This document shows, one piece after another, positions 26,405 through 46,638 of a DNA stretch of 64,000 nt; position 1 is the first letter of the stretch; every line of letters starts with the position of its first letter. The stretch is taken from NCBI GenBank assembly GCA_012520295.1, contig JAAYOP010000137.1, positions 631 to 64,630 of the forward strand, written 5' to 3'. The notes beneath the pieces are model-generated. The model saw nothing but the letters and a program-made list of their open reading frames with translations. It was not told the origin of the DNA and did no database searches. A program made the translations under genes and the position numbers. This DNA is from Clostridiales bacterium (GTDB lineage Bacteria > Bacillota > Clostridia > Oscillospirales > Oscillospiraceae).

Positions 26405-26767
26405 AGCTAACCTCCGAAATTATTATTATCTTAAAAAACTCCGTAACGCTTGTCTGATGACAGACATCACAGTAACAGACACCAGGCCCGGGGAAGGTGC
26501 ACCCGGCATTATGTAAACTTTAAAACGCGTTCAGTTTTCAATAACAAAAGTATATACCCATCTTTAATAAAAATCAACACATTGGGCAATTCTTTTGATT
26601 TTTTTATAAGTACAAATCTTTCCGGTGTATGGTGTATAATATTATCAAATCCGGACAACAGGAGTAGCTTGAATGAAGCTCGTTATCGTGATATACTCTG
26701 AAAACCGGATGTGTTCAAGCCCATAAGGCTTTTCACAAAAAACAACTCGTTCGGAGGCGGATATATA

Positions 26768-27346
26768 ATGAACACAGCCGTTATTCTGGCAGGCGGAAAG
26801 AGCCGCCGTATGGGAAGGGACAAACTCAAGCTTCCCTTTCGCGGTAAAACACTGCTTGAGGCTGCCGTAGAGCGATTTTCCAGGAACTTTGATAATGTTT
26901 ATGTCAGTGTAGCAGACACCAACAAATATCCTTATGTAAATGCCCGAAAAATCGAGGATATTTACAAGGGCTGCGGTCCTTTGGCTGGCCTTCATGCGAC
27001 CCTGAAGCAAACCGATGACGAGGGTGTTTTTCTCGTGGCTGCAGATTTGCCCTTTTCAGACCCTATGGCTGCCAAAAAAATCATCCAGTTGGCAGGCGAA
27101 CATGACGCCGCCATGCTACTCGATGAACAGGGGCGCTATGAGCCCTTATTTGCCTATTACAAAAAAAGCATTCTTCCGGCAATCGAGACGCTTTTAGAAA
27201 ACGGAGAATATAGAATGATAAGAGCGCTGGAAACCTTCTCTTTAAGAAAGCTTACAAAGGAGGATCTGGGCAGCTTCTGGAATGACAATCTGCTGCTCAA
27301 TATAAACCTGGTTGATGACTATAAAAAGCTGATGGAAAAACAATAG
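26768..27346 (+). CDS. mobA: molybdenum cofactor guanylyltransferase MobA
   Basis: The ORF has the N-terminal motif MNTAVILAGGKSRRMGRDK. The start at 26768 is preceded by GGAGGCGG. Confidence 0.8.
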   Translation: MNTAVILAGGKSRRMGRDKLKLPFRGKTLLEAAVERFSRNFDNVYVSVADTNKYPYVNARKIEDIYKGCGPLAGLHATLKQTDDEGVFLVAADLPFSDPMAAKKIIQLAGEHDAAMLLDEQGRYEPLFAYYKKSILPAIETLLENGEYRMIRALETFSLRKLTKEDLGSFWNDNLLLNINLVDDYKKLMEKQ

Positions 27347-27969: not shown

Positions 27970-28860
27970 TTAAAACAGCTCTTTTACAACCTCCAGAAAG
28001 AGCCGAGCAGCCGGATTTGTTATTTTTCTGTGCCAGGCAATTACATATGTACGCAGGGTATCATCTCCGGGGATGCGTGTGAAGGAAACGTTTTCGGAAT
28101 AGAATACTCGGGAAAGAGCCTCCGGAATTATGGAAATACCAAGCCCTGCGCCCACAGACAAGAGCACTGCCTCCGCCCGGTCATACTGACAAGTTACATT
28201 TGGTTTATATCCGCGGGCCTCGCATACTTTCGCTATTTCATTATAGAGCGCCGGGCCGTCCGTTTCGGAGACGGCTATGAACCGCTCACCCCCCAGTTTT
28301 GAAAAGTCCAGCGGCTTGCCTGCCATGGGATGATTCTTAGGAAAAGCTACACAAAGGTGGTCGGTATTTGATATAATATAGTCAAAGGTCTCTCCGGCAG
28401 GAACCATTTCCAGCACTGCGAAATGGACGTCATATTTCGCTTCATTCATCGCAATTACCTGGCTTCGTCCGGAGGTGAAGTTTATATCCACAGTAATATC
28501 CGGATATTTTGATGAAAAGGCCGACAGACATTTTGACAAAACCGCACTGGAAGTAGTAAGCGCCGCAATCGATACATGGCCCTTCCACCCTTCCTCCATC
28601 TGTCTGATTTGAAAAGCGGCTTTCTCGGCTATTTCTATCATTTCCACTGCATAGGGAAGGAAGTTATTGCCTGCGTCCGTAAGGGTTACGCTTCGTCTGT
28701 TGCGTATAAAGAGCTTACTTCCAAGATATTTTTCAAGCTCGCCTATGCGATGGCTTATAGCAGGCTGTGTTAACCCGTTTCTTCTTGCCGCCTCAGAAAA
28801 GTTGAGAGTTTGCGCCACCGAAACAAAATACTTCAATTGATTTATATCCATAATATTCAC
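27970..28860 (-). CDS. LysR-family transcriptional regulator
   Basis: A 296-aa ORF has the N-terminal LysR HTH (MDINQLKYFVSVAQTLNFSEAARRNGLTQPAISHRIGELE). It is divergent from the first Mo-enzyme operon. Confidence 0.9.
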   Translation of the reverse strand: MNIMDINQLKYFVSVAQTLNFSEAARRNGLTQPAISHRIGELEKYLGSKLFIRNRRSVTLTDAGNNFLPYAVEMIEIAEKAAFQIRQMEEGWKGHVSIAALTTSSAVLSKCLSAFSSKYPDITVDINFTSGRSQVIAMNEAKYDVHFAVLEMVPAGETFDYIISNTDHLCVAFPKNHPMAGKPLDFSKLGGERFIAVSETDGPALYNEIAKVCEARGYKPNVTCQYDRAEAVLLSVGAGLGISIIPEALSRVFYSENVSFTRIPGDDTLRTYVIAWHRKITNPAARLFLEVVKELF

Positions 28861-29118: not shown

Positions 29119-31845
29119 ATGGGTGTAAAGTTCAAACCTGATGTCCAAAACATAGTGAGCTACAGCCTAATGGGGCCAGAGAGTGGCGGCCCTTGTCTTG
29201 TCGAATCTACAGACGGCAAAATAACAAGAATAAGACCTTACGCATATGACATGGAGTACATCAAAGAAAACTGCAATCCATGGAAGATGGAAGCCAGAGG
29301 CAAGGTGTTTGAAGCCCCCAACCGGGCCACAATTACTCCCTTTGGTCTTGGCTACAAGTACAGGGTCTATTCGCCAAACCGGGTCAAATATCCCCTCAAG
29401 CGGGTGGACTGGGATCCAAAGGGTGAACGCAACCCACAAAACAGAGGTAAATCCGGCTATGTGCGTATCTCCTGGGATGAAGCGGCACAGATAGCCGCCG
29501 ATGAGCTGAAAAGGATTAAAGAAACCTATGGTCCGGAAGCCGTGCTCTGCCAGTCGGACATGCACGGCGAGGGCAAGAATATCGCCCCAAGCCACGGCTG
29601 TCCGAACCGGCTTTTGGCTTTGATGGGCGGCTATACTACCCAAATGCGGAATATGGATAGCTGGGAAGGCTGGTTTTGGGGAGCAAAGCATGTTTGGGGC
29701 TGCGAGCCTGTAGGTGAGATGATGCCCATGACGAACTTATACCCCGATATAGCTAAACATGCCGATTTGCTGCTTTTCTGGGGCTGCGACCCTGAAACGA
29801 CTCCCCTGGGTGTTGTCAGCCATATGCCCAGTCGACTGTGCTATTGGTTAACCGAAATAGGTTTAAAAAGCATTTATATCTGCCCGGATCTCAATTACGG
29901 TGCTGCCGTACATGCCGACAAATGGATACCTATCCTTCCCAATACCGACGTTGCCCTGCAGCTTGCAATCGCGTATATCTGGATTACCGAGGACACCTAT
30001 GATAAAGAGTATATAGATACCCACGCATATGGATTTGATAAGTTTGAGGATTATGTACTGGGCCGTGAGGATGGTATACCCAAGACACCTGAATGGGCTT
30101 CTGAGAAATGCGGTGTCCCCGAGTGGACAATCAAGGCTCTCGCCCGGGACTGGGCAAAAAAGACCGCCAGCATTTTGCACGGAAACGGTGGCCCCTACAT
30201 TCGCGGCCCCTACTCCACCGAACCCGCCCGGCTCGAGGTGATGCTGCTGGGAATGCGTGGCCTCGGAAAACCCGGCGTACACCAGGCAAAAATGATAGAA
30301 TGGAATATGTGGAACAAGGATTATCCCGTTCCCTATCAGGGGCAGTTTGTACCTCAGATGCCTCATATTTGCGATGCTTTGCGTACTGTGGACGGGGACG
30401 TGGGCCCGGAAATAAACTTAAGAAGGTTTTTGCTGACTCCTGAACAGGAGAAGCGCGCGCCTGAGCTCAAGGAGCTGTTCAAGCAGTTGCCGGCGCCCCT
30501 TCAATTCATTCCCCGCACCCTTATACACAAAGCCATATTGGACGGCCATGCGGAATGGTATGGACTGCAGTGCTTCAGCTCCAGCCAGATACCCGACGAG
30601 AATAATTACCGCAAGCCCACAACGGAATACCAGTTTGAAAAGATGGTATATCCCAGGCCCGGGCTATCGAGAATTCACATGATGTGGACCGATGCCCCGT
30701 GCAATGTTACATGCTGGAACAACGGGAATCTGCAAATCAAGGCAATGAGAAGTCCGGAGATTGAGTGCATAATTGCCCAGCACCCATGGCTTGAAAACGA
30801 CTGCTATTTTGCAGACCTTATATTCCCCGTTGCCACAAAGCACGAAATGATAGACATAGGAAACGATTTGAGCAGCGGCGGATATACCTCCGTCTATCTC
30901 ACAGGTAAGTGCTGCGAACCTATCGGCGAGTCTCTTTCCGACTTTGACGTGTGCGCAAAGGTTGCCGAAAAGTTGGGCAAGGAGTACTACGATGCCTATA
31001 CAGGAAACCTTTCTGATGAGGAAAAGGTGAGATTTTTCTACAAAGCAACCGGCTGTGAGGAGTATATGACCTGGGAAGAGTTCCAGGAGAGGAAAATATT
31101 TATCGTACCCTGCAAGCCAGACGCCCAGGAGCTTCCCGCCGGTCTGTATAATTTCTATAAAGACCCTGAAAATAACCCGCTTTCAACCCCTACCGGGCTG
31201 CTGGAATACTCGTCAACAGCGTTGGAAAAGCACTTTCCTGACGATCCTGAGCGGCCTCCGGTACCAAAGTGGATTGAAAAAAGCGAATCCCACGACGAGA
31301 GACTGTCAAGCGAACGTACAAATAAATATCCGTTGCTGTGTATGTCCAATCACGGAAGATGGCGCATGCATGCCCAGTGTGACGACATAGTCCCAAACCG
31401 CGAGGTTGAGACCATGAAAATACGCGCAAAGGACGGCTACCAGTATGAACCTCTGTGGCTGCATACCAGCGAAGCCGAAAAGCGTGGTATTAAGCACGGT
31501 GACATCGTTAAAGTTTTTAATGAACGTGGAACTGTGCTCTGCGGGGCCTATGTGACCGAGCGGCTTATACCAAACACCTGTTATGTGGACCACGGATCTC
31601 GGCTCGACCCCATCGTTCCCGGGGAATTGGACCGGGGTGGCTGCATAAATTCAATCACTCCCACCTCAATGACATCAAAAAAAGCTACCGGTATGGCCGT
31701 CAGCGGCTTTCTTGTGGAGGTTGCCAAGGTTACCGACGAGGAGATGGAGAGATGGAAGAGAGATTATCCTGAAGCCTTTGCCCGCAAGATTGACGAAGCC
31801 GCAGGCGTTTGTCTTGAAGGCTGGCTGATAAGCGATGACTGCTGA
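29119..31845 (+). CDS. molybdopterin (bis-MGD) oxidoreductase large subunit, divergent pyrogallol hydroxytransferase (AthL)-like paralog 1
   Basis: A 908-aa ORF belongs to the DMSO-reductase superfamily. It has no twin-arginine signal and no N-terminal Cys cluster. It shares AthL-type blocks with paralog 2 (ITRIRPY, NPQNRGKSGYVRISWDEA, DSWEGWFWG, TYDKEYI, GIPKTPEWA, MRGLGKPG, DRGGCIN). A strong GGGAGG RBS precedes it. Confidence 0.6.
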   Translation: MGVKFKPDVQNIVSYSLMGPESGGPCLVESTDGKITRIRPYAYDMEYIKENCNPWKMEARGKVFEAPNRATITPFGLGYKYRVYSPNRVKYPLKRVDWDPKGERNPQNRGKSGYVRISWDEAAQIAADELKRIKETYGPEAVLCQSDMHGEGKNIAPSHGCPNRLLALMGGYTTQMRNMDSWEGWFWGAKHVWGCEPVGEMMPMTNLYPDIAKHADLLLFWGCDPETTPLGVVSHMPSRLCYWLTEIGLKSIYICPDLNYGAAVHADKWIPILPNTDVALQLAIAYIWITEDTYDKEYIDTHAYGFDKFEDYVLGREDGIPKTPEWASEKCGVPEWTIKALARDWAKKTASILHGNGGPYIRGPYSTEPARLEVMLLGMRGLGKPGVHQAKMIEWNMWNKDYPVPYQGQFVPQMPHICDALRTVDGDVGPEINLRRFLLTPEQEKRAPELKELFKQLPAPLQFIPRTLIHKAILDGHAEWYGLQCFSSSQIPDENNYRKPTTEYQFEKMVYPRPGLSRIHMMWTDAPCNVTCWNNGNLQIKAMRSPEIECIIAQHPWLENDCYFADLIFPVATKHEMIDIGNDLSSGGYTSVYLTGKCCEPIGESLSDFDVCAKVAEKLGKEYYDAYTGNLSDEEKVRFFYKATGCEEYMTWEEFQERKIFIVPCKPDAQELPAGLYNFYKDPENNPLSTPTGLLEYSSTALEKHFPDDPERPPVPKWIEKSESHDERLSSERTNKYPLLCMSNHGRWRMHAQCDDIVPNREVETMKIRAKDGYQYEPLWLHTSEAEKRGIKHGDIVKVFNERGTVLCGAYVTERLIPNTCYVDHGSRLDPIVPGELDRGGCINSITPTSMTSKKATGMAVSGFLVEVAKVTDEEMERWKRDYPEAFARKIDEAAGVCLEGWLISDDC

Positions 31846-31871
31846 ATACTAAAACGAGAGAGGAGCAGCTT

Positions 31872-32687
31872 ATGTCAAAAGCACTTGTGATTGATGTAGC
31901 TCGCTGCAGCGGCTGCTATAACTGTCAGCTGGCCTGCAAGGACGAGCATGTCGGAAACGATTGGACTCCATATGCAAAACCGCAGCCTCAAATCGGACAG
32001 TTCTGGATCAAGGTCCATGAGAATGTCTGCGGAACAATTCCAAAGGTAAGAATACATTATATACCCAAGCTCTGTAATCACTGCAGAAAAGCTCCCTGCC
32101 TTGAAGCCTGTGAGCACAATGCGATATATCGCAGGGACGATGGATTTATTATCATTAACCCTGAGAAATGCACAGGCTGCAAAGCCTGTCAGGAGGCCTG
32201 TGAATATGACGCGATCTTCTACAATGAAGAGCTGAAAATTGCACAAAAATGTACAGGCTGTGCCCATCTGCTGGATCATGGCTATGAACTCCCGCGCTGC
32301 GTGGAGGCATGTCCTACAGACGCGATGAAATACGGGGAGGAAGAGGATTTAAAAGACTGGATTGAGGGTGCAACGGTAATGATACCCGAAACAGGCTGCC
32401 ATCCGAGAGTGTATTACAGAAACATACCCGGCAAATTCATAGCCGGTACCGTATACGACCCCATTGAGAAAGAGGTCATTATCGGCGCAAAATGCATCCT
32501 CAACTCTGGAGGCAAGGTTTGGCAGGTTAATACAGACGAATACGGAGATTTTTGGTTCGAGGACCTTCCCGTCGGTCTGTTTGACCTGGTAATCTCCGCC
32601 CCGGGATTTGAATATAAGGGCTTTTACAATCTTAAAACATCAAAGGATCTGAATTTGGGCGATATACCATTGGAAAGAGCAAAATAA
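31872..32687 (+). CDS. Fe-S small subunit (BthL-like) of paralog 1, with C-terminal Ig/carboxypeptidase-regulatory-like domain
   Basis: A 271-aa ORF has four Cys groups of 4Fe-4S type (CSGCYNCQLAC, CNHCRKAPC, CTGCKACQEAC, CTGCAHL...CVEAC). A beta-rich tail follows (GTVYDPIEKEVIIGAKCIL...GDFWFEDLPVG). Confidence 0.65.
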   Translation: MSKALVIDVARCSGCYNCQLACKDEHVGNDWTPYAKPQPQIGQFWIKVHENVCGTIPKVRIHYIPKLCNHCRKAPCLEACEHNAIYRRDDGFIIINPEKCTGCKACQEACEYDAIFYNEELKIAQKCTGCAHLLDHGYELPRCVEACPTDAMKYGEEEDLKDWIEGATVMIPETGCHPRVYYRNIPGKFIAGTVYDPIEKEVIIGAKCILNSGGKVWQVNTDEYGDFWFEDLPVGLFDLVISAPGFEYKGFYNLKTSKDLNLGDIPLERAK

Positions 32688-32693
32688 ACCCAC

Positions 32694-32721
32694 GGGGAAA
32701 CCATTTGCAAATGGTTTCCCC
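32694..32721 (+). terminator. strong hairpin after the first operon
   Basis: GGGGAAACCATTT-GC-AAATGGTTTCCCC is a perfect 13-bp inverted repeat 7 nt after the stop. The downstream U-tract is weak. Confidence 0.55.
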
Positions 32722-32896
32722 GATGTATTTGACACGGCGTTGCAATTGGCTTCTATTTCTTGGAAATATGGGCTGAAGTTAGTGGTAAATATGCAGAAAT
32801 TATGTATATATTGTTTTTGACTATGAACATGTTTTCTGATATACTGAATTGCAGACACAAAACAGCAATATCATCGGTAAAATAACCTTCGTACCC

Positions 32897-32927
32897 TTGA
32901 CATTGGAACAGTTCCATGGTTTATAAT
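32897..32927 (+). promoter_or_regulatory. MerR-type promoter (19-bp spacer with central dyad) of the second transhydroxylase operon
   Basis: The sequence reads TTGACA-19 nt-TATAAT. The spacer contains the dyad TTGGAAC-A-GTTCCAT. A 36-bp stretch (32894-32929) is 31/36 identical to 39710-39745. Confidence 0.6.
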
Positions 32928-32950
32928 AACAAAGTTATATCAGGTTACAT

Positions 32951-32976
32951 AAAACAGCCGCTCGTCGGCTGTTTCT
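32951..32976 (+). promoter_or_regulatory. terminator-like hairpin inside the 5' leader of the second transhydroxylase operon
   Basis: AAAACAGCCG-CTCGT-CGGCTGTTTCT lies between the MerR-type promoter and the RBS at 33014. Confidence 0.4.
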
Positions 32977-33028
32977 GATGACATTGCTGTATCTGTATAA
33001 TAAATTTAAAATATAGGAGGCTTTGTAT

Positions 33029-35596
33029 ATGGCTGAGAGAATCACCTATAGCATTTGTGTCGGTGGTCCGATTGCCGTTCACACCGAAAACGGTGTTATA
33101 AGGCGTATCAGACCTCTGATATTCGATGAGTCCGATCCGAAGCCATGGACCATCAAGGCTCGCGGCCGGGAATTCAGTCCGCCGAAACAGACGACGGTAT
33201 CACTGGTAGCTCTGCAGGAAAAGGACAGGACCTATGCGTACGATCGTCTGAAGTATCCCATGATTCGTGAGGACTTTGTCGAAACTCCCGACGGTAAAAA
33301 CCGAAATACGGAAAACCGCGGTAAGTCCGGTTACCGTCGCGCAACCTGGGATGAAGCACTGGATCTCATAACCCGCGAGATAAAAAGAATCCAGAAAACC
33401 TACGGTCAGGAAGGTGTTACCGCCTTGACAAGCTCCCACCACTCCTGGGGACTGGTGGGCTACAAGCTGAGCGCCTTTAAGAGGTTTTTTAACATGTTGG
33501 GCTATACCCGGGTAATCGATAACCCCGACTCCTGGGAAGGCTTCCACTGGGGCGCTACTCACACGTATGGCTACTGGTGGCGTTTGGGAGGGCCGGAGCC
33601 CTTTGATCTGCTTGAGGATGCTCTTCAAAATGTGGAAACAATGATAATGTGGTCTCACGACCCTGACACCACAAGAGGCGGCTATGCCGCAAACGAAAGC
33701 GCTATCTGGCGCCACTGGATGAAAGAGCTTGGAATACAGTTTATCTACATAGATCCGTTTAATAACTTCTCCAGTGTTAAAAACGGCGATAAGTGGATTG
33801 GTCCGAGAATGGGCACAGATGCGGCTCTGGCCGAAGCCATTGCGTATGTTTGGCTTACGGAAGGCACTTATGATAAGGAGTACATTGAAAAGCACGCTCA
33901 CAGGTTTGACGAGTGGGCAGATCACATCCTCGGCAAGGGAATTGACCGCACACCCAAAACACCCAAATGGGCGGAAGAGATCACCGGTGTTAAGGCGGCC
34001 GACATAAAGGCTATAGCCCGCCGCTGGGCCTCCACAAAAACAATGGGCGGTTCCGGAATGCGCGGCGGCTTCGGCGGCGTATGCCGTACTGTCGGAGGAG
34101 CCGATTTTTCACGCATTCTTGTATTGCTGTTTGCCATGCAGGGCATGGGCAAGCCCGGAAGAAATATGTGGACCGGCACAACCGGCGCTCCAATGGACTA
34201 TAATTTCTGGTTCGGCGGATATGCTGATCCTAAGTCCACCATTGCAGGTGCTCCCATTGCCGACTATACTCCGGAAAACCCGGTTAAACAGGTGCTTTAC
34301 CGCACAAACCTTCCGGATGCTATACTCGATGGCCACTATGAGTGGTATGGCGAAGGCTTCTGTGGCGGCTCTCTGGAAGAGCAGTTTACAGAGCATGTAT
34401 ATCCTTTGCCCGGCTACAACAGAGTTCATATGCTCTATCGTTACGGCGGCTCTTTCTTTGGCACCATGCTTGATACCAACAAGTGGGCAAAAATGTATAA
34501 GAGCCCCGAGCTTGAGTTCGTTGTAAATCAGGATATTTACTTTAACCCCGAAGCTCGCTTTGCAGATGTTATTCTGCCCGCCTGCACAAACCTCGAGCGC
34601 TATGACATCGGCGAGTTTTGTAATTCCGGTAACTCCGGTTACCAGAGCCATAGCCAGACCGGAAACAACTGGCAGGTCGTTGTGTTCCAGGATAAGGCCA
34701 TTGAGCCTCTGTGGGAGTCCCGCTCCGATTACTGGATTTTCTCGCAGCTGGCCGAACGCCTTGGCTTCGGTGAGAAGTATACCGAAGGACGCGATGAGCT
34801 GGCATGGTGCAAGCGTTTTTGGCAATTTAGTGATTTGAGTAAGAGAATCAGCTGGGAAGACTTTATGAAGAAGGGCTATTATGTAGCCGGTGTGCCCGAA
34901 AACTGGGAGCGCCACTATGGCTTCAGATGGTTTGCCGAAGGTTATCCCTGCGACACTCCAAACCATAAGCCTTTCCAGGAAGAAGGCAAGCTGGGTACGC
35001 TCACAGGCAAATTTGAGTTCGTTTCTGAGAGCCTACTCAAATACGCACCCGATGACGAGATTCGTACTCCCATTGCTTTCTACAAACACAGCTGGGAAGG
35101 ACACAAGTCCCTGCTTATCAAACGCTTCCCCTACGCTCTTATATCCCCTCACCCACGCTTTGACTATCATACCCACTACCAGCAGCACTGCATGTGGCTC
35201 TGGGAGATACCGCAGAACCGCAAGGTTGTCAACGGTAACCCCTATCAGGTTCTTCGCATCAATCCGAAAGTTGCAGAGGAAAAAGGCATCAAGGAAGGCG
35301 ACATTGTGCGTATGTACAATGACCGGGGATCCGTTCTCGGTGTTGCCCATATCACAAATCGCGTAAAGCCGGAAACAGTCCATATGTATGCTTCCTCAGG
35401 TATATATAACCCCGTAGTTTACGGTGAGATTTCAACTGACAAGGGCGGTTGCACAAATCTGCTCACACCGAGCCAGCTTATGGGCCGCAAGGCTCCCGGA
35501 ATGGTCCCGAATACAACGCTAGTTGATATCGAGAAATATGATGTTCCTGAGGAGTATGGTCAGGGATTTGAAAAAATATTAGAGGAGGTTAAATAA
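33029..35596 (+). CDS. athL: pyrogallol-phloroglucinol transhydroxylase large subunit-like Mo-bisMGD enzyme (paralog 2)
   Basis: The ORF encodes about 855 aa from the ATG at 33029 (AGGAGG 9 nt upstream). It has no Tat signal and no FS0 Cys motif. Extended blocks match my recollection of Pelobacter AthL (TSSHHSWGLVGY, NPDSWEGFHWG, PFDLLEDAL, TYDKEYIEKHAHRFDEWADHILGK, MQGMGKPGRNMW, ILPACTNLERYDIGEF, YNDRGSVLGVAH). The identity is from memory and no search was run. Confidence 0.7.
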   Translation: MAERITYSICVGGPIAVHTENGVIRRIRPLIFDESDPKPWTIKARGREFSPPKQTTVSLVALQEKDRTYAYDRLKYPMIREDFVETPDGKNRNTENRGKSGYRRATWDEALDLITREIKRIQKTYGQEGVTALTSSHHSWGLVGYKLSAFKRFFNMLGYTRVIDNPDSWEGFHWGATHTYGYWWRLGGPEPFDLLEDALQNVETMIMWSHDPDTTRGGYAANESAIWRHWMKELGIQFIYIDPFNNFSSVKNGDKWIGPRMGTDAALAEAIAYVWLTEGTYDKEYIEKHAHRFDEWADHILGKGIDRTPKTPKWAEEITGVKAADIKAIARRWASTKTMGGSGMRGGFGGVCRTVGGADFSRILVLLFAMQGMGKPGRNMWTGTTGAPMDYNFWFGGYADPKSTIAGAPIADYTPENPVKQVLYRTNLPDAILDGHYEWYGEGFCGGSLEEQFTEHVYPLPGYNRVHMLYRYGGSFFGTMLDTNKWAKMYKSPELEFVVNQDIYFNPEARFADVILPACTNLERYDIGEFCNSGNSGYQSHSQTGNNWQVVVFQDKAIEPLWESRSDYWIFSQLAERLGFGEKYTEGRDELAWCKRFWQFSDLSKRISWEDFMKKGYYVAGVPENWERHYGFRWFAEGYPCDTPNHKPFQEEGKLGTLTGKFEFVSESLLKYAPDDEIRTPIAFYKHSWEGHKSLLIKRFPYALISPHPRFDYHTHYQQHCMWLWEIPQNRKVVNGNPYQVLRINPKVAEEKGIKEGDIVRMYNDRGSVLGVAHITNRVKPETVHMYASSGIYNPVVYGEISTDKGGCTNLLTPSQLMGRKAPGMVPNTTLVDIEKYDVPEEYGQGFEKILEEVK

Positions 35597-35597
35597 C

Positions 35598-36434
35598 GTG
35601 AGATATGGTATAGCTATCGATACCGCCCGCTGCATGGCTTGCTACAACTGTTTCATGGCCTGCAAAGATGAGCACTGCGGTCATGCCTCCAAACTGTCCG
35701 CCCCCCAGCCCCATACGGGCCAGTTCTGGATGAACATAATCGAATGGGAACGCGGCGACAGACCTGGCAACATCAAAGTTGCAACTGTACCCACTCCCTG
35801 CTCACACTGCCAGGACCCGTCTTGCATGAAAGTGGCTAAAAACGGAGCCGTCTATAAAAGAGATGACGGTATAGTAATAATAGACCCAGAAAAATCAAAA
35901 GGCCAGAAAGCTATTGCCGACGCATGTCCCATAGGTGCAGCCTTCTGGAATGAGGAGCTTCAAATAGCTCAAAAGTGCACAATGTGCGCGGAGCTGCTTG
36001 ATGAAGGCTATAAAATGCCCCGCTGCGTGGAATCTTGTCCAAATCAGGCGTTGATTTTCGGTGATTTGGACGATCCCAACAGCGAAATATCCAAAAAAAT
36101 CGCTGCCGGCAAGGTAACACCTCTAAAGGGACTCGAGGGAATTGAAACAAACGTAGTACATCTGAATATACCCAGCGTCTTTCTTGCCGGTACAGTTTAT
36201 CTGCCGGATGATGAAGTGGCAATTGGCGCCAGTGTAACTCTGACCTGCAAGGAAACCGGCTCGGTATTCAAAACAGAGACGAATTGGGCCGGGGACTGGG
36301 AAGCAGAGGACCTGGAAAAGGACAAGGAGTTCGACATAGTCATTGAAATGGACGGTTACAAGCCGGTTAAGCTGTCTGCCAAAACCGACACGGATCATTT
36401 TGTTGACGAAACATTGCTTGAACCCGCAAAATAG
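35598..36434 (+). CDS. bthL: transhydroxylase small Fe-S subunit-like protein (paralog 2)
   Basis: A 278-aa ORF starts at GTG 2 nt after the alpha stop. It has ferredoxin-type Cys groups (CMACYNCFMAC, CSHCQDPSC, CTMCAEL...CVESC) and a C-terminal beta domain (GTVYLPDDEVAIGASVTL). Confidence 0.7.
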   Translation: MRYGIAIDTARCMACYNCFMACKDEHCGHASKLSAPQPHTGQFWMNIIEWERGDRPGNIKVATVPTPCSHCQDPSCMKVAKNGAVYKRDDGIVIIDPEKSKGQKAIADACPIGAAFWNEELQIAQKCTMCAELLDEGYKMPRCVESCPNQALIFGDLDDPNSEISKKIAAGKVTPLKGLEGIETNVVHLNIPSVFLAGTVYLPDDEVAIGASVTLTCKETGSVFKTETNWAGDWEAEDLEKDKEFDIVIEMDGYKPVKLSAKTDTDHFVDETLLEPAK

Positions 36435-36443
36435 AATCTTTTT

Positions 36444-36472
36444 GTCTCTGCGGGATAATATCCCGCAGAGAC
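36444..36472 (+). terminator. perfect 13-bp hairpin after bthL-like gene (no U-tract)
   Basis: GTCTCTGCGGGAT-AAT-ATCCCGCAGAGAC lies 10 nt after the stop. It is either an intercistronic structure or a weak terminator. Confidence 0.4.
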
Positions 36473-36634
36473 AATCTGACATTTGGATAATCAAAGTATC
36501 ACTGGGCACGACACAGAACCGGAGCCCGGATATCTGCGTGCCGCATGCTTTAACCTGCGGCAGTTGTGCGCAAAAGTATTTTATTGGAATTTGTAACATA
36601 CAGAAAAATGTTGCGCAGAATGGAGTAAATAAGA

Positions 36635-37834
36635 ATGCGTGATGTAGTAATAGTAGAAGCATGTCGTACCGCAGTTGGCAAAATTGGCGGTACTCTTAAG
36701 GATATTCCTGCCGAGGAGCTTGCCCGCGTTGTCGTTCAAGGCATACTCGACAGAAGTAAAATTGACCCCAAGGATATAAACGAAGTTATGATGGGCCACT
36801 GCCGTCAAACTTCCGATAATCCAAATATTGCCCGAATAGTTGCCCTGCGGTGCGGGATTCCCGAAGAGGTGCCCGCCAAGACCATTATGCGCCAGTGCGC
36901 TTCGGCTATGACTGCCGTAGTGGATGGCGTCATGAGCATACAGGTAGAGGACAATGACGTGGTATTAGCCGGAGGGACAGAGAGCATGTCCACTGCCGTC
37001 TTTTATATCCGCGGCGCCCGCTACGGACTGGGCACAGGCAATACAACTCTGGTAGACTCACTCACGGAAGGGCAGTTCCAGAGCCAGCCTCAGGAGATAT
37101 ACGGATCTTATAATATGGGTGTGACCGCCGATAACGTTGCTGCCAAATTAAACATTTCCCGCGAAGACGCCGATGCTTTTGCCCTTCAGAGCCAGCTTCG
37201 CGCCGCCAAGGCAATCAAAGAAGGTAAATTCAAGGATGAAATCGTACCCGTTATAGTCCCGCAGAGGAAAAAGGATCCCATCGTTTTCGATACTGATGAA
37301 TTCCCGAGAGAAACCAGCATGGAGAAGCTTGCAAAACTAAAGCCTGCTTTTACAAAAGACGGTATAACAACTGCGGGTAATTCCTCCGGCAGAAATGACG
37401 GCGCTTCCGCACTCCTTATAATGTCTGCCGACAAGGCAAAGGAGCTGGGACTCAAGCCCCTTGCGAGATTTGTCAGCTATGCCACAACCGGCCTGGACCC
37501 GCGCATAATGGGCTTAGGCCCTGTTGAAGCCACTAAGAAGGCGCTGAAAAGAGCAAATCTGACCCTTGATGACATAGAGCTTATAGAGCTCAACGAAGCT
37601 TTTGCCGCCCAGTCCATCGGTTGTATCCGTGAGCTCGGCATTGAAGACAAAATGGATATTATAAATGTCAATGGCGGAGCTATCGCCCTTGGTCATCCTG
37701 TCGGCTCCTCCGGTTGCCGAATAATAGTGACCCTTCTCAATGAGATGCGTCGCAGGGGTAATAAATACGGTTTGGCGACTCTCTGTGTTGCCGGCGGTAT
37801 GGGGCAGGCCGTAATTATTGAAGCACTGTATTAA
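36635..37834 (+). CDS. acetyl-CoA C-acetyltransferase (thiolase), second copy
   Basis: A 399-aa ORF has thiolase signatures ([29 protein letters not shown]). Confidence 0.9.
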
Positions 37835-37860
37835 AAAATAATACATAATTACAAATTTTA

Positions 37861-37869
37861 TGATATAAT
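37861..37869 (+). promoter_or_regulatory. extended -10 element (TGaTATAAT) upstream of the SDR gene
   Basis: TGATATAAT lies about 72 nt upstream of the ATG at 37941. No good -35 element is present. Confidence 0.35.
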
Positions 37870-37940
37870 ATAACATGTCTTTGTTTTTGGTGCTAAAATA
37901 GAGTTCAAGGACAACGCTTTAATGGAAGGACGGAGAAGAA

Positions 37941-38738
37941 ATGAAACTTTTTGATCTCACCGGAAAAACCGCAGTTGTAGTAGGCGGAGCCGGAGGTCTT
38001 GGACAGTCTATTGCTCAGGGTTTGGCCGAAGCCGGAGCAAAGGTGTTGATTTCCAGCCGTAAGGAAGAATCTCTGAAGAGAGCTCAGGAAGAAATAAAGG
38101 CCGCCTGCGGCAAGGATGTTTTTTGCTACGCCGCAGACGCTACTGATGAAGACCAGGTAATAAGCCTCCTCAATGCCGCGATTGAAAAGATGGGGAAAAT
38201 TCAAGTTCTGGTCAACGCACAAGGTTTCAACAAAAAACAGGATGCACTGGATTTTGATATCAGCGTGTTTCGACAGATGCTGGATGCCAATGTCACCAGC
38301 TTTATGATTACAGCTAAGCATTTCGGCCGTCACTTTAAGGAAAACGGTTACGGAAAAATCATCAACCTCTCCTCTGTCCGCGGAAAAATTGCAACCAAGG
38401 GAACAGGTAATGCCGGCTATTGTTCCACAAAGGGCGCCGTTGATATGCTGACCAAGCAGCTGGCCTCAGAATACGGCCAGTATGGGATAACAGTCAATGC
38501 CATAGGCCCGAATATCACAGCGACTCCCATGATGATCCCGGTATTTGAAAAGCGTGCGGCGGAAGCCGGGGTTGACGTGGATACATATCTTAAGCAACAG
38601 GGCGCTGGTAATCCGATGAGAAGGATGGGGATGCCCGAGGATATCGTAGGTACCGCCATCTTCCTTGCATCACCTGCTTCAGACTTTATGACCGGCAACA
38701 TTCTCTATCCTGACGGTGGGCTAACCGCTATAGGTTGA
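37941..38738 (+). CDS. short-chain dehydrogenase/reductase, candidate NADPH phloroglucinol reductase
   Basis: A 265-aa classical SDR has the motif GGAGGLG and the catalytic S...YxxxK (YCSTK). The function is assigned from the neighbouring cyclase, dehydrogenase and BKACE genes. Confidence 0.6.
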   Translation: MKLFDLTGKTAVVVGGAGGLGQSIAQGLAEAGAKVLISSRKEESLKRAQEEIKAACGKDVFCYAADATDEDQVISLLNAAIEKMGKIQVLVNAQGFNKKQDALDFDISVFRQMLDANVTSFMITAKHFGRHFKENGYGKIINLSSVRGKIATKGTGNAGYCSTKGAVDMLTKQLASEYGQYGITVNAIGPNITATPMMIPVFEKRAAEAGVDVDTYLKQQGAGNPMRRMGMPEDIVGTAIFLASPASDFMTGNILYPDGGLTAIG

Positions 38739-38751
38739 TTAAACAAAAGGA

Positions 38752-38791
38752 AAAGGGTGGCTCACAAAAAAGAGACACCCTTTCTTTTTTT
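38752..38791. terminator. bidirectional terminator between the SDR and MerR genes
   Basis: AAAGGGTG...CACCCTTT is followed by TCTTTTTTT. An A-run lies on the other side. Confidence 0.6.
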
Positions 38792-38802
38792 AACACACAT
38801 AT

Positions 38803-39615
38803 TTATATACTCTCCTCAATGGGAAGCCATACTTCAAAATATCCCGTTACCTTATTGTCTTCTACGACGCTGCACGCCAGATTGCCAAAAGCGCAGTCCG
38901 AGATGACGTAATTATTCTCTTTCGCGTATTCCATCATATAATCCAGATGTCGTGCGGTAAACCTGTCCTTACCTATGCTTTTAAAGGCCGAATGAATGCA
39001 AAGCCGAGAGGGCATGTGTTTTACGGGAGGGCTTATATCGACATCGAATTCCTTTACATACCTCATACTCAGCGAAAATCCCCAGGAATAGTCGTCCCCT
39101 TCACCGAGAAGATCTTCTTCGGATATTTCGAAGTACCGCTTAGTAAACGGCATATATTTCAGCCATTTCCTTGACAGAAGCTGAAGCTCAGAATCATTGT
39201 CATATTTCTTGTTGTATCTGTTTAAGTATCTGACAAATTCCGCACTGCGCCTTATGTCGCACTTCCCGATATATTTTTTAATATTTACAAGACTTTCATA
39301 GTATTTTCTTATGCGCTGCAGTAAAAGCTCTTGGTATCGGATATTCTTCGTAATCTCTTCGCTTTTTTCCCTCAAATCGTCCATCAGCATTTCATATGTG
39401 CTCGCTGAGACAATCTGTGCCACATGGTCAATTCCAAATCCGAAATTTTTAAACCAGAGGCAATCAATCAGAAAATTAATATCCCAAGTATCATAATATC
39501 TATAGTTATTAGAGGGATCCTTTTCCGGTGATACTACGCCTTTTTCTTCATAATAACGGATTAGATCGGGCGATATTCCAAGGATTCTAGCCACATCACC
39601 AATCTTATACTTCAT
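38803..39615 (-). CDS. MerR-family regulator with C-terminal GyrI-like effector-binding domain (BmrR-type architecture)
   Basis: The ORF has the N-terminal MerR HTH (MKYKIGDVARILGISPDLIRYYEEKGVVSPEKDPSNNYRYY), then a coiled-coil linker and a C-terminal domain of about 150 aa ending in GYFEVWLPIE. GGAGGG lies 8 nt upstream of the start. Confidence 0.8.
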   Translation of the reverse strand: MKYKIGDVARILGISPDLIRYYEEKGVVSPEKDPSNNYRYYDTWDINFLIDCLWFKNFGFGIDHVAQIVSASTYEMLMDDLREKSEEITKNIRYQELLLQRIRKYYESLVNIKKYIGKCDIRRSAEFVRYLNRYNKKYDNDSELQLLSRKWLKYMPFTKRYFEISEEDLLGEGDDYSWGFSLSMRYVKEFDVDISPPVKHMPSRLCIHSAFKSIGKDRFTARHLDYMMEYAKENNYVISDCAFGNLACSVVEDNKVTGYFEVWLPIEESI

Positions 39616-39664
39616 AGTTAGAACCCTCCTACAGAATAAACTACATTATTAACTTATTTAGTAT

Positions 39665-39692
39665 ATTATAACTGATTTTTAAGGATTGTCCA
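39665..39692 (-). promoter_or_regulatory. candidate promoter of the MerR-family gene
   Basis: The minus strand reads TGGACA-16 nt-TATAAT. It is back to back with the cyclase operon promoter. Confidence 0.4.
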
Positions 39693-39712
39693 TTGAAAGT
39701 TGTGAGATTCCC

Positions 39713-39743
39713 TTGACTTTGGAACGGTGCCAAGGTTTAGAAT
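39713..39743 (+). promoter_or_regulatory. MerR-type promoter (19-bp spacer with dyad) of the phloroglucinol-pathway operon
   Basis: The sequence reads TTGACT-19 nt-TAGAAT. The spacer contains TTGGAAC-G-GTGCCAA. It is divergent from the MerR-family gene and is a near copy of 32894-32929. Confidence 0.6.
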
Positions 39744-39800
39744 AATATTGCCATTACTTTTAATTTAATTTTATTATTTTATATAAGGAGGATTTATAAA

Positions 39801-40688
39801 ATGGCCTATATGCCACTCGACAAAAGCAAATTATATCTTGACAGGACAAAGATGACAAAGATATATGATCTTAGTCAGCCTTGGGGCGTTGACACTCCCC
39901 TGTGGCCGTTTCCGGGAGCCCGGCAGGATCTGGTATTTCCCCGCGGACAGTATCTGGGACGTTTCCACAAGAGAACTATGACCTATACTGGCACCCTTCA
40001 CGCCGGTACTCATATGGATGCCCCCAATCATGTCCTTCATGAGGAAGAAGTCGATCGCGAGCGAAATGGCTATACCTTTGCCGAGATTCCCCTGGAATAT
40101 ACCATAGGAACAGGTGTAATTCTCGACATGCGCCATTTGAGAGATGAATTCGAAGCAAAATGGAAAACAGGCTTCGAACCTGATCTCTGGTACGAGCTCA
40201 AGCCTGAGGATTTTGAAAAGGCATGCCAGAAGGACGGCCTGGAAATACGCGAGTATGACTGGGTTGTGGTAAATACCGGTTTCCATCATTACTGGAGAAA
40301 AAACAACGACAAGTACTATAATTATTATCCGGGCATGGGCCCCGAGGTTGCCAAGTGGCTTATTCACGAAAAGCGTATAAAGGGTATTGCCGGAACATGG
40401 GGCGCAACAGATGCTCCCCTGTGGCACGCTCCCCTTTCTGAGCAGATGCCATGGCTCGATAAAGCCTACAGAAAGGCAACAGGAAGAGATCCCGATGTGG
40501 ATTTCCCCGACTACGAACCCTGTCACCGTCTTTTCATGCAACACGGAGTTTGCACTGTTGAAAATGCCGGTGGCAATATTGACGAGGTTACCGGAAAGCG
40601 CATGATAATCAGCGCTACCCCGTTCCGCTGCGAGATGGCCGACGGTGGATTCGTCAGACTGGTGGCTTGGGAAGAAGGTTCTTTCTAA
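39801..40688 (+). CDS. cyclase-family metal hydrolase, candidate dihydrophloroglucinol cyclohydrolase
   Basis: A 295-aa ORF has the cyclase/kynurenine-formamidase metal motif HxGTHxDxPxH (HAGTHMDAPNH). A strong AAGGAGG RBS precedes it. Confidence 0.6.
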   Translation: MAYMPLDKSKLYLDRTKMTKIYDLSQPWGVDTPLWPFPGARQDLVFPRGQYLGRFHKRTMTYTGTLHAGTHMDAPNHVLHEEEVDRERNGYTFAEIPLEYTIGTGVILDMRHLRDEFEAKWKTGFEPDLWYELKPEDFEKACQKDGLEIREYDWVVVNTGFHHYWRKNNDKYYNYYPGMGPEVAKWLIHEKRIKGIAGTWGATDAPLWHAPLSEQMPWLDKAYRKATGRDPDVDFPDYEPCHRLFMQHGVCTVENAGGNIDEVTGKRMIISATPFRCEMADGGFVRLVAWEEGSF

Positions 40689-40758: not shown

Positions 40759-40789
40759 CTTGAAATCAGTAAAGGGACTGGTCATAATA

Positions 40790-41752
40790 ATGTTAACGCT
40801 TAATGATATCAAAAAAATCGCGGTTCTGGGTGCCGGAACCATGGGGCCCGGTATCGCCCAGATTTTTGCCATGGGCGGTTATGATGTTACAATGTGGACC
40901 CGCAGCGAGGCAACTCGTAATAAAGCCAGGGAAACCCTCCACAAAAGTCTGGAGACCTTTGCCGAAGAGGATCTTTTAGCTAAAAACCGGATAGAGGATG
41001 TGTTCGGCAGGGTTAGCTTCGCCCCCACGGTAGAGGAGGCTGTGGATGGCGCGGACTTTATAATGGAAACCATTGTTGAGAATAAGGACGCAAAAACAGA
41101 GCTGTTCAAGCAGTTGGATGCATGCATAGGAAATGATTGTATATTAGCGTCCAATACCTCCGGACTCAACATTTTTGAGCTCATTCCCAAACACAGACTG
41201 CCCCAGATGGTCATTGCCCACTGGTATTCTCCGCCGCAGCTTATTCCTTTGGTTGAGGTAGTTAAAAGCGAGCAGGCCCCCGAAGAATATGCAGCGATAA
41301 CGGTGGAGCTTTTAGAGAAGTGCGGTAAAACCCCTGTTCTGATGAAAAAATTTATCAGAGGATATATAGCCAACCGCTTGCAGATGTGTCTCAATCAGGA
41401 GGTTTTCTATCTTCTTGACAATGGCTATTGCACTCCTGAAGATATAGATAAGGCCGTCAAGTCCAGCTTTATACCCAGAGCAGTAGTGCTCGGTCTATGC
41501 AAACGCGCCGATTTCGGCGGCCTTGATATGACAGCCAATAATTTCAAAAATAAGAGCTATCAGCTTCCACCGCCTGTGGATATGCCCAAGACCCTGGCAG
41601 AACATATAGAAAAAGGAGAGCTTGGTCTAAAAACCGGCAAGGGTTTCTATGATTATACGGGAGTCGACAAGCAGGCCCTGCTGGCAAAACGCGACAAGCA
41701 ACTGTTTGAAGTATTTAAATTAGCTAATAAATTCATGGAAGATCCCGTCTAA
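40790..41752 (+). CDS. 3-hydroxyacyl-CoA dehydrogenase-family NAD enzyme, candidate (S)-3-hydroxy-5-oxohexanoate dehydrogenase
   Basis: The ORF has a Rossmann N-terminus (KKIAVLGAGTMGPGIAQIFAMGGYDV) and an Hbd-like C-terminal domain. The start was set at MLTLNDIKK. An upstream TTG at 40760 is possible. Confidence 0.6.
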   Translation: MLTLNDIKKIAVLGAGTMGPGIAQIFAMGGYDVTMWTRSEATRNKARETLHKSLETFAEEDLLAKNRIEDVFGRVSFAPTVEEAVDGADFIMETIVENKDAKTELFKQLDACIGNDCILASNTSGLNIFELIPKHRLPQMVIAHWYSPPQLIPLVEVVKSEQAPEEYAAITVELLEKCGKTPVLMKKFIRGYIANRLQMCLNQEVFYLLDNGYCTPEDIDKAVKSSFIPRAVVLGLCKRADFGGLDMTANNFKNKSYQLPPPVDMPKTLAEHIEKGELGLKTGKGFYDYTGVDKQALLAKRDKQLFEVFKLANKFMEDPV

Positions 41753-41788: not shown

Positions 41789-42703
41789 GTGGCCAAGTCC
41801 AATAAGATAATTATACAGTGCGCCCTTTGCGGTGCAGGAACAAAAAAAGAACAGGCTCCTACCGTTCCCTATACACCTGAGGAGATTGCCGAGCAAATTG
41901 TAGAAGTTGCGAAGGCAGGTGCTTCCATCGCCCATATCCATGTACGTGAGGATAAGATGGTAGACGGTAAGATGCAGATTGGCTATAAGTCCATGAGCCT
42001 TGAGAAATTTACCGAAGCCGTCGAACTCACTCGGAAAGCCTGTAAGGAAGCCGGGGTTGACATAATCATCAACCTTACCACCTCAGGAGGCGAGTATGAA
42101 GATTACAAGCGCCTACAGCATCTGGGCGCCCTGAGGCCTGAAATGTGTTCTTTTGACCCCAACACCCTTAATTGGGCCAACAGCTATATCTTTGAAAATA
42201 GCCCCCGCTTTCTCAACCTGCTGAGCCAGGAAGTTGTAAAATATGATATTAAGCCTGAATTTGAAATATTTGATACGGGGCATATAGACAGTGCTATGCA
42301 TTATGTGAATAAGTGGAATATTCCCAAGCCTCCCCATCTCCAGTTTATAATGGGTGTAGGCGGCTCTATGCCCGGCACCGCCGAAAATCTCGCTTTTATG
42401 GTAAGCAAGCTTCCGGAGGGAGCCACCTGGTCGGTTTCCGGCATCGGAAGAACCCACTTACCCATGATGCTGGCAGGCCTTGCCTTGGGATGTGACGGTC
42501 TGCGTGTCGGCCTTGAGGACAATATATACTATTCCAAGGGCGTTGTTGCCACCAATCTTCAGCTGGTAGAGCGCGCTGTAGAGCTGGCAAAACTGGCCGG
42601 CCGTGAAATTGCCACTGCCGACGAGGCCAGAGAGATACTTGGCATTACGCGCAACTGCCTGCGCGATGAGAAGACATATGAGCCCACATTTAAGGCCGAA
42701 TAA
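41789..42703 (+). CDS. BKACE (beta-keto acid cleavage enzyme, DUF849) family protein, candidate triacetate acetoacetate-lyase
   Basis: A 304-aa ORF starts at GTG after AGGAG. It has the BKACE N-terminal signature (IIIQCALCGAGTKKEQAPTVPYTPEEIAEQIVEVAKAGASIAHIHVRED). Confidence 0.65.
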   Translation: MAKSNKIIIQCALCGAGTKKEQAPTVPYTPEEIAEQIVEVAKAGASIAHIHVREDKMVDGKMQIGYKSMSLEKFTEAVELTRKACKEAGVDIIINLTTSGGEYEDYKRLQHLGALRPEMCSFDPNTLNWANSYIFENSPRFLNLLSQEVVKYDIKPEFEIFDTGHIDSAMHYVNKWNIPKPPHLQFIMGVGGSMPGTAENLAFMVSKLPEGATWSVSGIGRTHLPMMLAGLALGCDGLRVGLEDNIYYSKGVVATNLQLVERAVELAKLAGREIATADEAREILGITRNCLRDEKTYEPTFKAE

Positions 42704-42812
42704 TATAACTCATGTATTATAAAAAATAATAAAAAGTAAAATACTAAAGAACCACAGGTTTATCGGAGTTTCCCGCTGACCGGTGGTTATAAGAAAGGAA
42801 TATAGTTATAAT

Positions 42813-46128: not shown

Positions 46129-46638
46129 ATGAATGCAACTATACCTATATATTCATTTGTCGCTTTTTCCGGAACCGGGAAAACAACGCTTCTGGAAAAA
46201 CTCATTCCCGAACTAAAAGCAAGGGGCTTACGCGTAGCCGTTATAAAACACGATGCCCATGACTTCAATATAGACCATGAGGGCAAGGACAGTTGGCGGA
46301 TGACTCAGGCGGGAGCCGATGTAACGGTAATCGTATCTGGTAAAAAAGCCGCCATAATGGAAAACCGTCCAACATCCGTGGAGGATCTGATAGAAAAGAT
46401 TACAGATGTGGATATACTCTTGACGGAGGGATATAAGCACGGCGGGTGGAAGAAAATCTGCATATACAGACAGGCCTCCGGAAAACCGCTGGCCATTGAG
46501 CCGGAAAAATGCTTCGCCATCATGTCCGATGTACCCCTTGATGTAAAAACCCTTTGCCTCGACATTGACGATATTTCGGGCTTGGCCAAACTTATCATCG
46601 AAGACGCACAAAAAAGCAGGAGGAAGGAAGATGATTAA
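46129..46638 (+). CDS. mobB: molybdopterin-guanine dinucleotide biosynthesis adaptor MobB
   Basis: A 169-aa ORF has a P-loop (FSGTGKTTLLEKL) and the motif VAVIKHDAHDF. Confidence 0.8.
   Translation: MNATIPIYSFVAFSGTGKTTLLEKLIPELKARGLRVAVIKHDAHDFNIDHEGKDSWRMTQAGADVTVIVSGKKAAIMENRPTSVEDLIEKITDVDILLTEGYKHGGWKKICIYRQASGKPLAIEPEKCFAIMSDVPLDVKTLCLDIDDISGLAKLIIEDAQKSRRKEDD

Follow-up and report, generated by a model that had tools for sequence, protein, structure and literature searches.

Two near-identical MerR-type promoter/operators beside a predicted GyrI-like regulator point to a shared regulon for pyrogallol and phloroglucinol breakdown in an Oscillospiraceae bacterium

Regulators of the MerR family act at promoters that are poor substrates for RNA polymerase: their spacers measure 19-20 bp, and the -35 and -10 elements lie too far apart and out of phase (PMC8113463, PMC9909328, PMC8169799). 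Dimers of the regulator occupy a palindrome within this spacer, where the apo form represses and the ligand-bound form kinks and untwists the DNA into a geometry like that of a 17-bp spacer (PMC8113463, PMC9909328, PMC8169799). Activation by such distortion has been solved for BmrR-type proteins (PMC8113463, PMC9909328). Here, we describe a 64,000-nucleotide stretch of DNA (the window) from a Clostridiales bacterium of the Oscillospiraceae (contig JAAYOP010000137.1, positions 631 to 64,630), in which two promoter/operator blocks of this type, site 1 (32894-32929, + strand) and site 2 (39710-39745, + strand), precede putative operons for the breakdown of pyrogallol and phloroglucinol. The gene of a predicted MerR/GyrI-like protein lies beside site 2 (38803-39615, - strand). 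Judging from sequence, sites 1 and 2 are very probably activator-dependent promoters of this neighbouring regulator.

Site 1 consists of the -35 element TTGACA (32897-32902), a spacer (32903-32921) and the -10 element TATAAT (32922-32927), and site 2 of TTGACT (39713-39718), a spacer of the same 19 bp and TAGAAT (39738-39743). A first-pass annotation of the window had singled out both blocks as near-identical; the two strings are reproduced at their positions, agree at 31/36 of them and show the consensus-like hexamers and the exact 19-bp spacing that had been described. The dyad that it had placed in the centre of the spacer is present at both sites, but its arms are longer than written, with 10 bp on either side of one central base, which makes a 21-bp palindrome of the form ACnTTGGAAY-N-RTTCCAAGGT; for the two blocks by themselves it can be written ACnTTGGAAC-N-GTTCCAwGGT. 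At site 1 this palindrome spans 32900-32920 (arms ACATTGGAAC and GTTCCATGGT, central base A), and at site 2 it spans 39716-39736 (arms ACTTTGGAAC and GTGCCAAGGT, central base G). It begins at the last two bases (AC) of the -35 element and ends 2 bp short of the -10 element. Both sites thus combine a spacer in the 19-20-bp range with a palindrome inside it, as MerR target promoters do, and the annotation's view of an over-long spacer with an internal operator as the hallmark of MerR activation agrees with the described systems (PMC8113463, PMC9909328).

The likeness between the sites is confined to the 36-bp block. The 60 bp flanking either block do not align with each other, which argues that the sites are a shared cis-element and not a duplicated segment. 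A degenerate 36-mer with at most three mismatches finds only sites 1 and 2 in the 64 kb and nothing in 100 shuffles. With a position weight matrix (PWM) built from 76 orthologous sites, site 1 scores 45.9 bits and site 2 scores 48.0 bits; the next-best position in the window reaches 1.5 bits and the best of 20 shuffles 6.1 bits. By this matrix the window holds no further site, including the regions upstream of the first AthL-like pair and of other genes. The concern that the motif might be a generic repeat, raised when the sites were first described, is not borne out by the two sites in the window or by the metagenome matches discussed below.

The anatomy of the operator can be read from 76 distinct sites, whose logo is C-TTGAC-n-TTGGaAY-n-RTtCCAAGGT-k-TAnAAT. 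Paired positions of the operator mirror each other in information content (including Y13/R15), the centre falls at position 14 from the start of the -35 element, and conservation peaks in the spacer. In a non-circular test of spacer length, the sites were reselected by the symmetric core TTGGAAYNRTTCCAA only; 70 of the sites found in this way have TTGAC in register, 66/70 carry TAnnnT at exactly 19 bp, and none carries it solely at a spacing 1 bp shorter or longer. Overall, >140 sites, drawn from different species, keep the palindrome and the 19-bp spacing. In its geometry, the operator is identical to that of CueR at the E. coli promoter PcopA (CTTGACCTTCCCCTTGCTGGAAGGTTTAACCT; this sequence was confirmed in 5,413 genomes of E. 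coli and located 40 bp ahead of copA), where the palindrome runs from A4 to T24 counted from TTGAC and is centred at 14 in a 19-bp spacer. The outer bases of the CueR operator (CTTGACCTT...AAGGTTTAA) are identical to those of the window sites (ACCTT...AAGGT), whereas the inner bases are CCCCTTGCTGG for CueR and GGAAY-N-RTTCC for the window type. CueR itself is a protein of 135 aa with a metal-binding loop, in place of which the window regulator has a predicted GyrI-like domain, and it controls copper efflux rather than the putative catabolism of phenols. The same signal, a strong palindrome in a spacer of 19 or 20 bp with the regulator beside its target, has been found by comparative genomics for heavy-metal MerR regulons (PMC1526738), although those regulons comprise metal transporters and detoxification genes and the window a carbon-catabolic pathway.

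Only one MerR-family gene is present in the window. It encodes a protein of 270 aa and is divergent from site 2. The N-terminus (residues 3-70) matches PF13411 (E 2.1e-14) and PF00376 (E 2.5e-13), and a profile search of the PDB returns CueR, MtaN, EcmrR, TipA, BmrR and MerR, with GlnR also among the sequence matches. For the DNA-binding domain, CueR is the best PDB sequence match (E 3e-10), and CueR and MtaN are closest. The NCBIfam family of a choline-utilisation MerR activator, named with Dde_3219, matches the regulator weakly (E 9e-11); a literature search on Dde_3219 returned nothing relevant. An AlphaFold (AF2) model made from a 33-sequence alignment (predicted local distance difference test score (pLDDT) 92.5; predicted template-modelling score 0.80) comprises a winged helix-turn-helix (HTH), a 42-residue helix (73-114) and an alpha/beta C-domain. 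The helix is predicted to form a coiled coil (pLDDT about 97) and superposes on that of BmrR in the model; MerR activators have a long antiparallel dimerisation coiled coil at this place, behind the HTH. Conserved polar residues of the protein are R159, S180, H207, S208, N244, C247, S248, E251 and E260. When the full-length model is compared with the PDB by Foldseek, BmrR is the best match (3iao, 3q5s, 1exi and 7ckq, the last being the BmrR transcription-activation complex; template-modelling scores 0.64-0.68, E down to 4e-12), followed by EcmrR and BrlR. The C-domain searched by itself matches the C-domain of BmrR (1bow, 2bow), GyrI/SbmC (1jyh), Rob-C (1d5y) and CTR107/SAV2435. The annotation had called this protein MerR/GyrI-like; the MerR part is confirmed by Pfam, and the GyrI-like part is found by predicted fold but not by Pfam.

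In its predicted combination of a winged HTH, a long coiled coil and a GyrI-like C-domain, the regulator resembles BmrR of Bacillus subtilis as well as EcmrR and BrlR, and the target promoter of BmrR-type proteins likewise has a 19-bp spacer holding a palindrome. The resemblance has limits. Sequence identity to BmrR-type proteins is only 14-16%, and the C-domain of the regulator escapes Pfam. BmrR binds lipophilic cations and controls a drug efflux pump, whereas the window regulator is presumed to bind a small neutral or anionic trihydroxybenzene and to control catabolic enzymes and an uptake transporter. Control of a multidrug efflux pump in answer to toxic compounds of diverse structure is what characterises the multidrug subfamily; the genes after both window sites encode catabolic enzymes, a CoA transferase and a symporter of the SSF family, whereas paralogues with the same operator do adjoin MatE pumps in metagenome loci. 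Unlike bmr, the window has two operators in one locus, and its regulator gene is divergent from the target, whereas the gene for BmrR lies downstream of its target.

The link between regulator and site is kept in relatives. A scan of one genome per species for orthologues of the regulator yielded 80 loci, with proteins 40-75% identical to it, almost all from Oscillospiraceae (Sporobacter, Papillibacter and many metagenome-assembled genomes (MAGs) from gut, rumen and termites). Of these loci, 77 extend 200 bp or more 5' of the regulator, and 64 of the 77 carry the site on the opposite strand within 400 bp upstream of the regulator gene, at a median of 98 bp from its start codon. Next downstream of the site, 51 of the 64 have the gene for the cyclase-family protein, three a gene for a 3HCDH protein and one a gene for a LysR-like protein; in the other nine, mostly at contig ends, the first gene could not be assigned. 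When the regulator-cyclase intergenic region is aligned for 29 species, the only conserved parts are the 32-bp block, the -35 and -10 elements of the regulator gene, and its ribosome-binding site with the start codon. The regulator's own promoter in close relatives reads TTGGAC-17-TATAAT. In the window, TGGACA-16-TATAAT (39665-39692, - strand), which stands back-to-back with site 2, is a candidate for this promoter. Autoregulation of the mer type by operator overlap was considered but is not indicated, as about 20 bp separate this candidate from the operator.

A further 15 sites are found elsewhere in the orthologous loci, ahead of pathway operons. They precede AthL-BthL-thiolase-SDR genes (SDR, short-chain dehydrogenase/reductase) in L001, L005, L007, L008 and L035, and thiolase-(BKACE)-SDR genes in L012, L014, L018, L019, L038 and L078, with the site directly before the thiolase gene in L012, L014, L018, L019 and L078. 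Others lie before rearranged pathway operons (L030, L036, L039), and in L050 an AthL-like gene is about 0.9 kb away. These additional sites mirror the two-operon layout of the window. The earlier proposal that one regulator serves both operons is supported by this pattern, with the site linked to the regulator in most loci and second sites before transhydroxylase, thiolase and SDR operons. Since the sequence-level features required of a MerR-activated promoter are all present and are kept across wide divergence, the sites are best read as activator-dependent promoters.

In some of the loci with the site, the first open reading frame (ORF) after it encodes a conserved protein of ~140-160 aa (MSDQYVKEIAMED...GKDGEKMMKSVESGNMVAVLSGNEIMY...) that belongs to no Pfam family (L001, L005, L116, L136 and L149; ~15000-15900 in L001 and ~14800-15700 in L005). 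It stands ahead of AthL-like or thiolase genes, and the window encodes no homologue of it.

The anaerobic breakdown of flavonoids and tannins by bacteria of the gut, rumen, termites and wetlands converges on phloroglucinol, and the enzymes of the phloroglucinol pathway were worked out only in 2023. In Clostridium scatologenes, a cluster encoding phloroglucinol reductase (PGR), dihydrophloroglucinol cyclohydrolase (DPGC), TfD, triacetate acetoacetate-lyase (TAL) and thiolase is induced 4-6-fold by phloroglucinol; an uncharacterised transcriptional regulator and a transporter are adjacent to it, and the family and operator of that regulator were not described (PMC10470551). The window contains the same enzyme families (SDR, cyclase, 3HCDH-like, BKACE and thiolase) in one location, and their Pfam families match those named for C. 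scatologenes (PMC10470551). In contrast to the C. scatologenes cluster, the window genes form two operons with the regulator between them, and one of these also holds a pyrogallol-phloroglucinol transhydroxylase. Most of the 80 related loci show the gene arrangement in synteny.

The first gene after site 1 encodes AthL2, the large subunit of pyrogallol-phloroglucinol hydroxytransferase (33029-35596, + strand, with the ATG at 33029). It matches chain 4v4c_A of the PDB, from the Pelobacter acidigallici enzyme, over its full length (E 1.2e-233, 781 bits) and contains PF21423, PF00384 and PF01568. It is followed by BthL2, the small Fe-S subunit (35598-36434, + strand; Fer4_11 and CarboxypepD_reg). 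Together, the two have the composition of a transhydroxylase: a subunit for molybdenum-bis(molybdopterin guanine dinucleotide) with an AhtL-like first domain, and an Fe-S subunit with a CarboxypepD_reg-like domain. The operon continues on the + strand with a thiolase (acetyl-CoA C-acetyltransferase, 36635-37834) and ends with an SDR that is a candidate PGR (37941-38738; assigned by family, PMC10470551). After site 2, all on the + strand, come the 'cyclase'-family protein, a candidate DPGC (39801-40688; PF04199), a 3-hydroxyacyl-CoA-dehydrogenase-family protein that is a candidate (S)-3-hydroxy-5-oxohexanoate dehydrogenase (40760-41752), a BKACE-family protein that is a candidate TAL (41789-42703), two CoA-transferase subunits (42783-43487 and 43441-44133) and a sodium:solute symporter (SSF) family transporter (44366-45901), which is the probable end of the operon and is syntenic in many loci. 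A sequence search of the PDB with the SDR and the cyclase returned no PGR or DPGC entry.

The following mechanism is proposed. Both blocks would be sigmaA-type promoters whose near-consensus hexamers are 2 bp too far apart, and about 70 degrees out of phase, for RNA polymerase to engage the two together. A dimer of the BmrR-like regulator would bind the 21-bp operator and, with no ligand, keep the promoter in an inactive geometry. Entry of a small phenolic ligand into the GyrI-like C-domain would then kink and untwist the spacer and realign the -35 and -10 elements, and transcription would start about 7 nt past the -10 element, near 32934 and 39750. Site 2 would drive the cyclase (DPGC), dehydrogenase, BKACE (TAL), CoA-transferase and symporter genes, and site 1 the transhydroxylase (AthL2/BthL2), thiolase and SDR (PGR) genes. 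Both operons would form one regulon that turns pyrogallol, by way of phloroglucinol, into acetyl-CoA and acetate.

The content of the regulon also suggests an effector. The regulator is almost always paired with the dihydrophloroglucinol-cyclohydrolase operon, whereas the transhydroxylase is found in a minority of the MerR-controlled operons of relatives. Because the cyclase operon is near-constant and the transhydroxylase is not, the common signal would be phloroglucinol or an early product of it and not pyrogallol or gallate. That phloroglucinol specifically is the effector has, in our estimate, an even chance; it fits the induction by phloroglucinol in C. scatologenes (PMC10470551). If phloroglucinol is the effector, the transhydroxylase of the window would be induced by its own product.

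Sites of this kind are not confined to the orthologous loci. With the promoter/operator pattern alone as bait, an exact-pattern scan of metagenome contigs returned at least 118 stretches, 80 of which were examined as loci. Among the matches listed, 60 loci have at least 400 bp 3' of the site, and a gene for a cyclase, an AthL-like protein, a thiolase or a 3HCDH protein follows in 37/60; orthologous regulators (47-73% identical) lie upstream of the site in about 27 loci, again among the matches listed. At the genes outside the pathway, the shared pattern is CTTGAC-19 bp-TAnAAT with an ACCTTGG...CCAAGGT palindrome. These genes encode MatE proteins (L083, L084 and relatives), Rce1-like CAAX proteases (L088, L103), a YitT membrane protein (L128), a choline-binding-repeat protein (L085) and a carboxyltransferase (L110). 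Paralogous MerR genes stand divergently upstream in L084, L091, L093, L101, L128, L137 and L151, and their products are 28-31% identical to the regulator, in the N-terminal region only. The operator type is therefore common to a wider clade of MerR regulators. As the operator is shared with the sites of paralogues, a PWM scan by itself would over-assign the regulon, and cross-talk with paralogous MerR regulators is possible.

One group of metagenome loci (L089, L148 and L160) shares an identical site, CTTGACCTTGGAACGGTTCCATGGTTTATAATA. No clear ORF is seen in the first 750 nt 3' of the site in L148 and L160, and L089 ends 141 bp past it. Divergently, the group encodes a protein of ~377 aa (start MKKYPCVYMRGGTSKAVFF) that resembles PrpF or 4-oxalomesaconate tautomerase by eye only, and which may tie the regulon to other gallate-related genes.

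Activation by the neighbouring regulator has to be weighed against other ways of explaining the two sites. The blocks could be ordinary strong promoters, alike by recent duplication or chance and served by no dedicated regulator, an idea that would suit their AT-rich intergenic setting and the good quality of their -35 and -10 elements. At the level of sequence it is effectively refuted, with a probability close to nil: the flanks are unrelated, zero matches are expected by chance, the palindrome and its spacing recur in the >140 sites of different species, and, unlike in ordinary promoters, the spacer is the most conserved part. The regulator might also be a simple repressor that sits inside the promoter and is released by its ligand with no distortion of the DNA (compare HspR, GlnR/TnrA and LiuR); some members of the MerR family act only as repressors. 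In favour of this, a protein bound to the operator, which overlaps the core promoter, could block access of RNA polymerase; the hexamers of both promoters are near consensus, and GlnR is among the PDB matches of the regulator. However, a promoter freed by a repressor would be expected to drift to a spacing of 17 +/- 1 bp, whereas about 70 sites, selected independently and belonging to regulators just 40-75% identical, keep 19 bp without variation. Moreover, a 19-bp spacer makes a promoter inherently weak and dependent on the activator conformation (PMC9909328), and the fold predicted for the whole protein is like that of the activators BmrR and EcmrR. We consider simple repression unlikely. 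It is very improbable that the sites are bound mainly or additionally by a MerR paralogue encoded elsewhere, such as a multidrug-type regulator. For this speak the same architecture before MatE, Rce1-like, YitT and choline-binding-repeat genes beside the 28-31%-identical MerR proteins, and a soil contig (L097) in which the operator lies just upstream of an ORF whose N-terminus looks, by eye, like a MerR-type HTH. Nevertheless, the window has one MerR-family protein, and the site adjoins the orthologous regulator in 64/77 loci and in the roughly 27 metagenome loci found, among the matches listed, by motif only.

Several observations weigh against activation of both operons by the neighbouring regulator in response to phloroglucinol. 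Other genes follow the same architecture in 23/60 metagenome loci, among the matches listed, and the operator sequence alone does not tell which MerR protein binds. Two loci (L041 and L076) have the regulator adjacent to the cyclase gene yet no site, and two (L018 and L078) have a site on the thiolase side only and none on the cyclase side. A weak alternative promoter (ATGACA-17-TAAATT, 32978-33006) lies within the leader of site 1 and, as far as its sequence can tell, could drive basal expression of the transhydroxylase. A Pfam search of the C-terminal 170 aa of the regulator (residues 100-270, E <= 10) finds no GyrI-like domain and only a spurious SIL1 match; precomputed Pfam annotations of 120 homologues list MerR domains only. 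The assignment of the effector domain therefore comes from the predicted fold and not from Pfam. The effector itself is deduced from regulon content, and dihydrophloroglucinol or several phenols are possible ligands. Binding, start sites and ligand are all derived from sequence rather than experiment.

Some loci stand apart from the pattern in other ways. Five that extend 200 bp or more beyond the 5' end of the regulator gene carry neither the site nor pathway genes, including L015, L016, L026 and L040 (L040 has a distant BKACE gene), and in L034, L061 and L080 the upstream sequence is too short to judge. In L041, a Parasporobacterium MAG, the region between regulator and cyclase (1520-1760) has, in place of the MerR site, an inverted motif, AAGAATAGT...ACTATTCGCAAA, repeated 4-5 times, and this motif may be the operator of a different regulator.

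No MerR-family regulator tied to the degradation of phloroglucinol or pyrogallol came up in a literature search, nor did any other regulator or an operator for the pathway. A 2021 review of the MerR family covers metal, redox, drug and a few other classes, with no aromatic-catabolic GyrI-like member. The mechanism proposed here is conventional. The locus would show a GyrI-like MerR regulator in the service of carbon catabolism rather than drug efflux. It supplies a candidate regulator, a 32-bp promoter/operator with >140 sites and a two-operon regulon that is unusually clean and well conserved, and it makes the sensing of phloroglucinol or pyrogallol in strict anaerobes directly testable. The 32-bp site can serve as a marker of the pathway in metagenome annotation, and the regulator with its promoter is a candidate part for a phloroglucinol biosensor. 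A more speculative scenario, which we hold to be unlikely, goes further: the regulator would be a dedicated phloroglucinol sensor derived from multidrug-binding BmrR-type regulators, which kept the ancestral operator, is open to cross-regulation with paralogues and induces a transhydroxylase whose product is the inducer (feed-forward). If this were true, no transcription factor for the anaerobic degradation of polyphenol rings would have been known before this one. In genomes with paralogues linked to MatE, CAAX or YitT genes, the shared operator would permit cross-regulation, and plant phenols would switch on catabolism together with efflux or defence through one cis-code.

The surroundings of the two sites contain other features. 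Upstream of site 1 lies a first AthL/BthL-like pair (29119-32687), which is more distant from the Pelobacter transhydroxylase 4v4c (463 bits), and a LysR gene (27970-28860, - strand) is divergent from it. A terminator-like hairpin with a 13-bp stem (32693-32722, + strand) stands 3' of the upstream BthL-like gene and parts that operon from site 1. Within the ~95-nt leader of site 1 is a stem-loop (32938-32980, + strand; inner hairpin 32953-32973; dG -24.3 kcal/mol, z -2.5). It was considered as a conserved attenuator and set aside: it cannot be aligned in relatives, z is only -2.5, and it stays a local feature. A search of Rfam (E <= 1) over 32600-39900 gave no match to a riboswitch or any other known RNA for the leaders. 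The BthL2 and thiolase genes are 200 bp apart, and a hairpin in this gap with a perfect 15-bp stem (TTGTCTCTGCGGGAT/ATCCCGCAGAGACAA) and no U-run (36442-36474) may serve the site-1 operon as a partial terminator, for processing or as a stabiliser, and could modulate read-through. A terminator-like hairpin with a T-run (38755-38791, + strand), read from sequence, lies between the convergent SDR and regulator genes.

Genes for a MobA-like protein and MobB, of molybdopterin guanine dinucleotide synthesis, flank the cluster at 26711-27346 and 46129-46638, which fits a supply of cofactor for Mo-dependent transhydroxylases. In L001-L009, the MobB gene keeps its place where the cyclase operon ends. 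In L007, L008, L014, L019 and at least seven metagenome loci, genes of the AthL1 type lie next to the MerR site, often divergent from it and 130-250 bp away.

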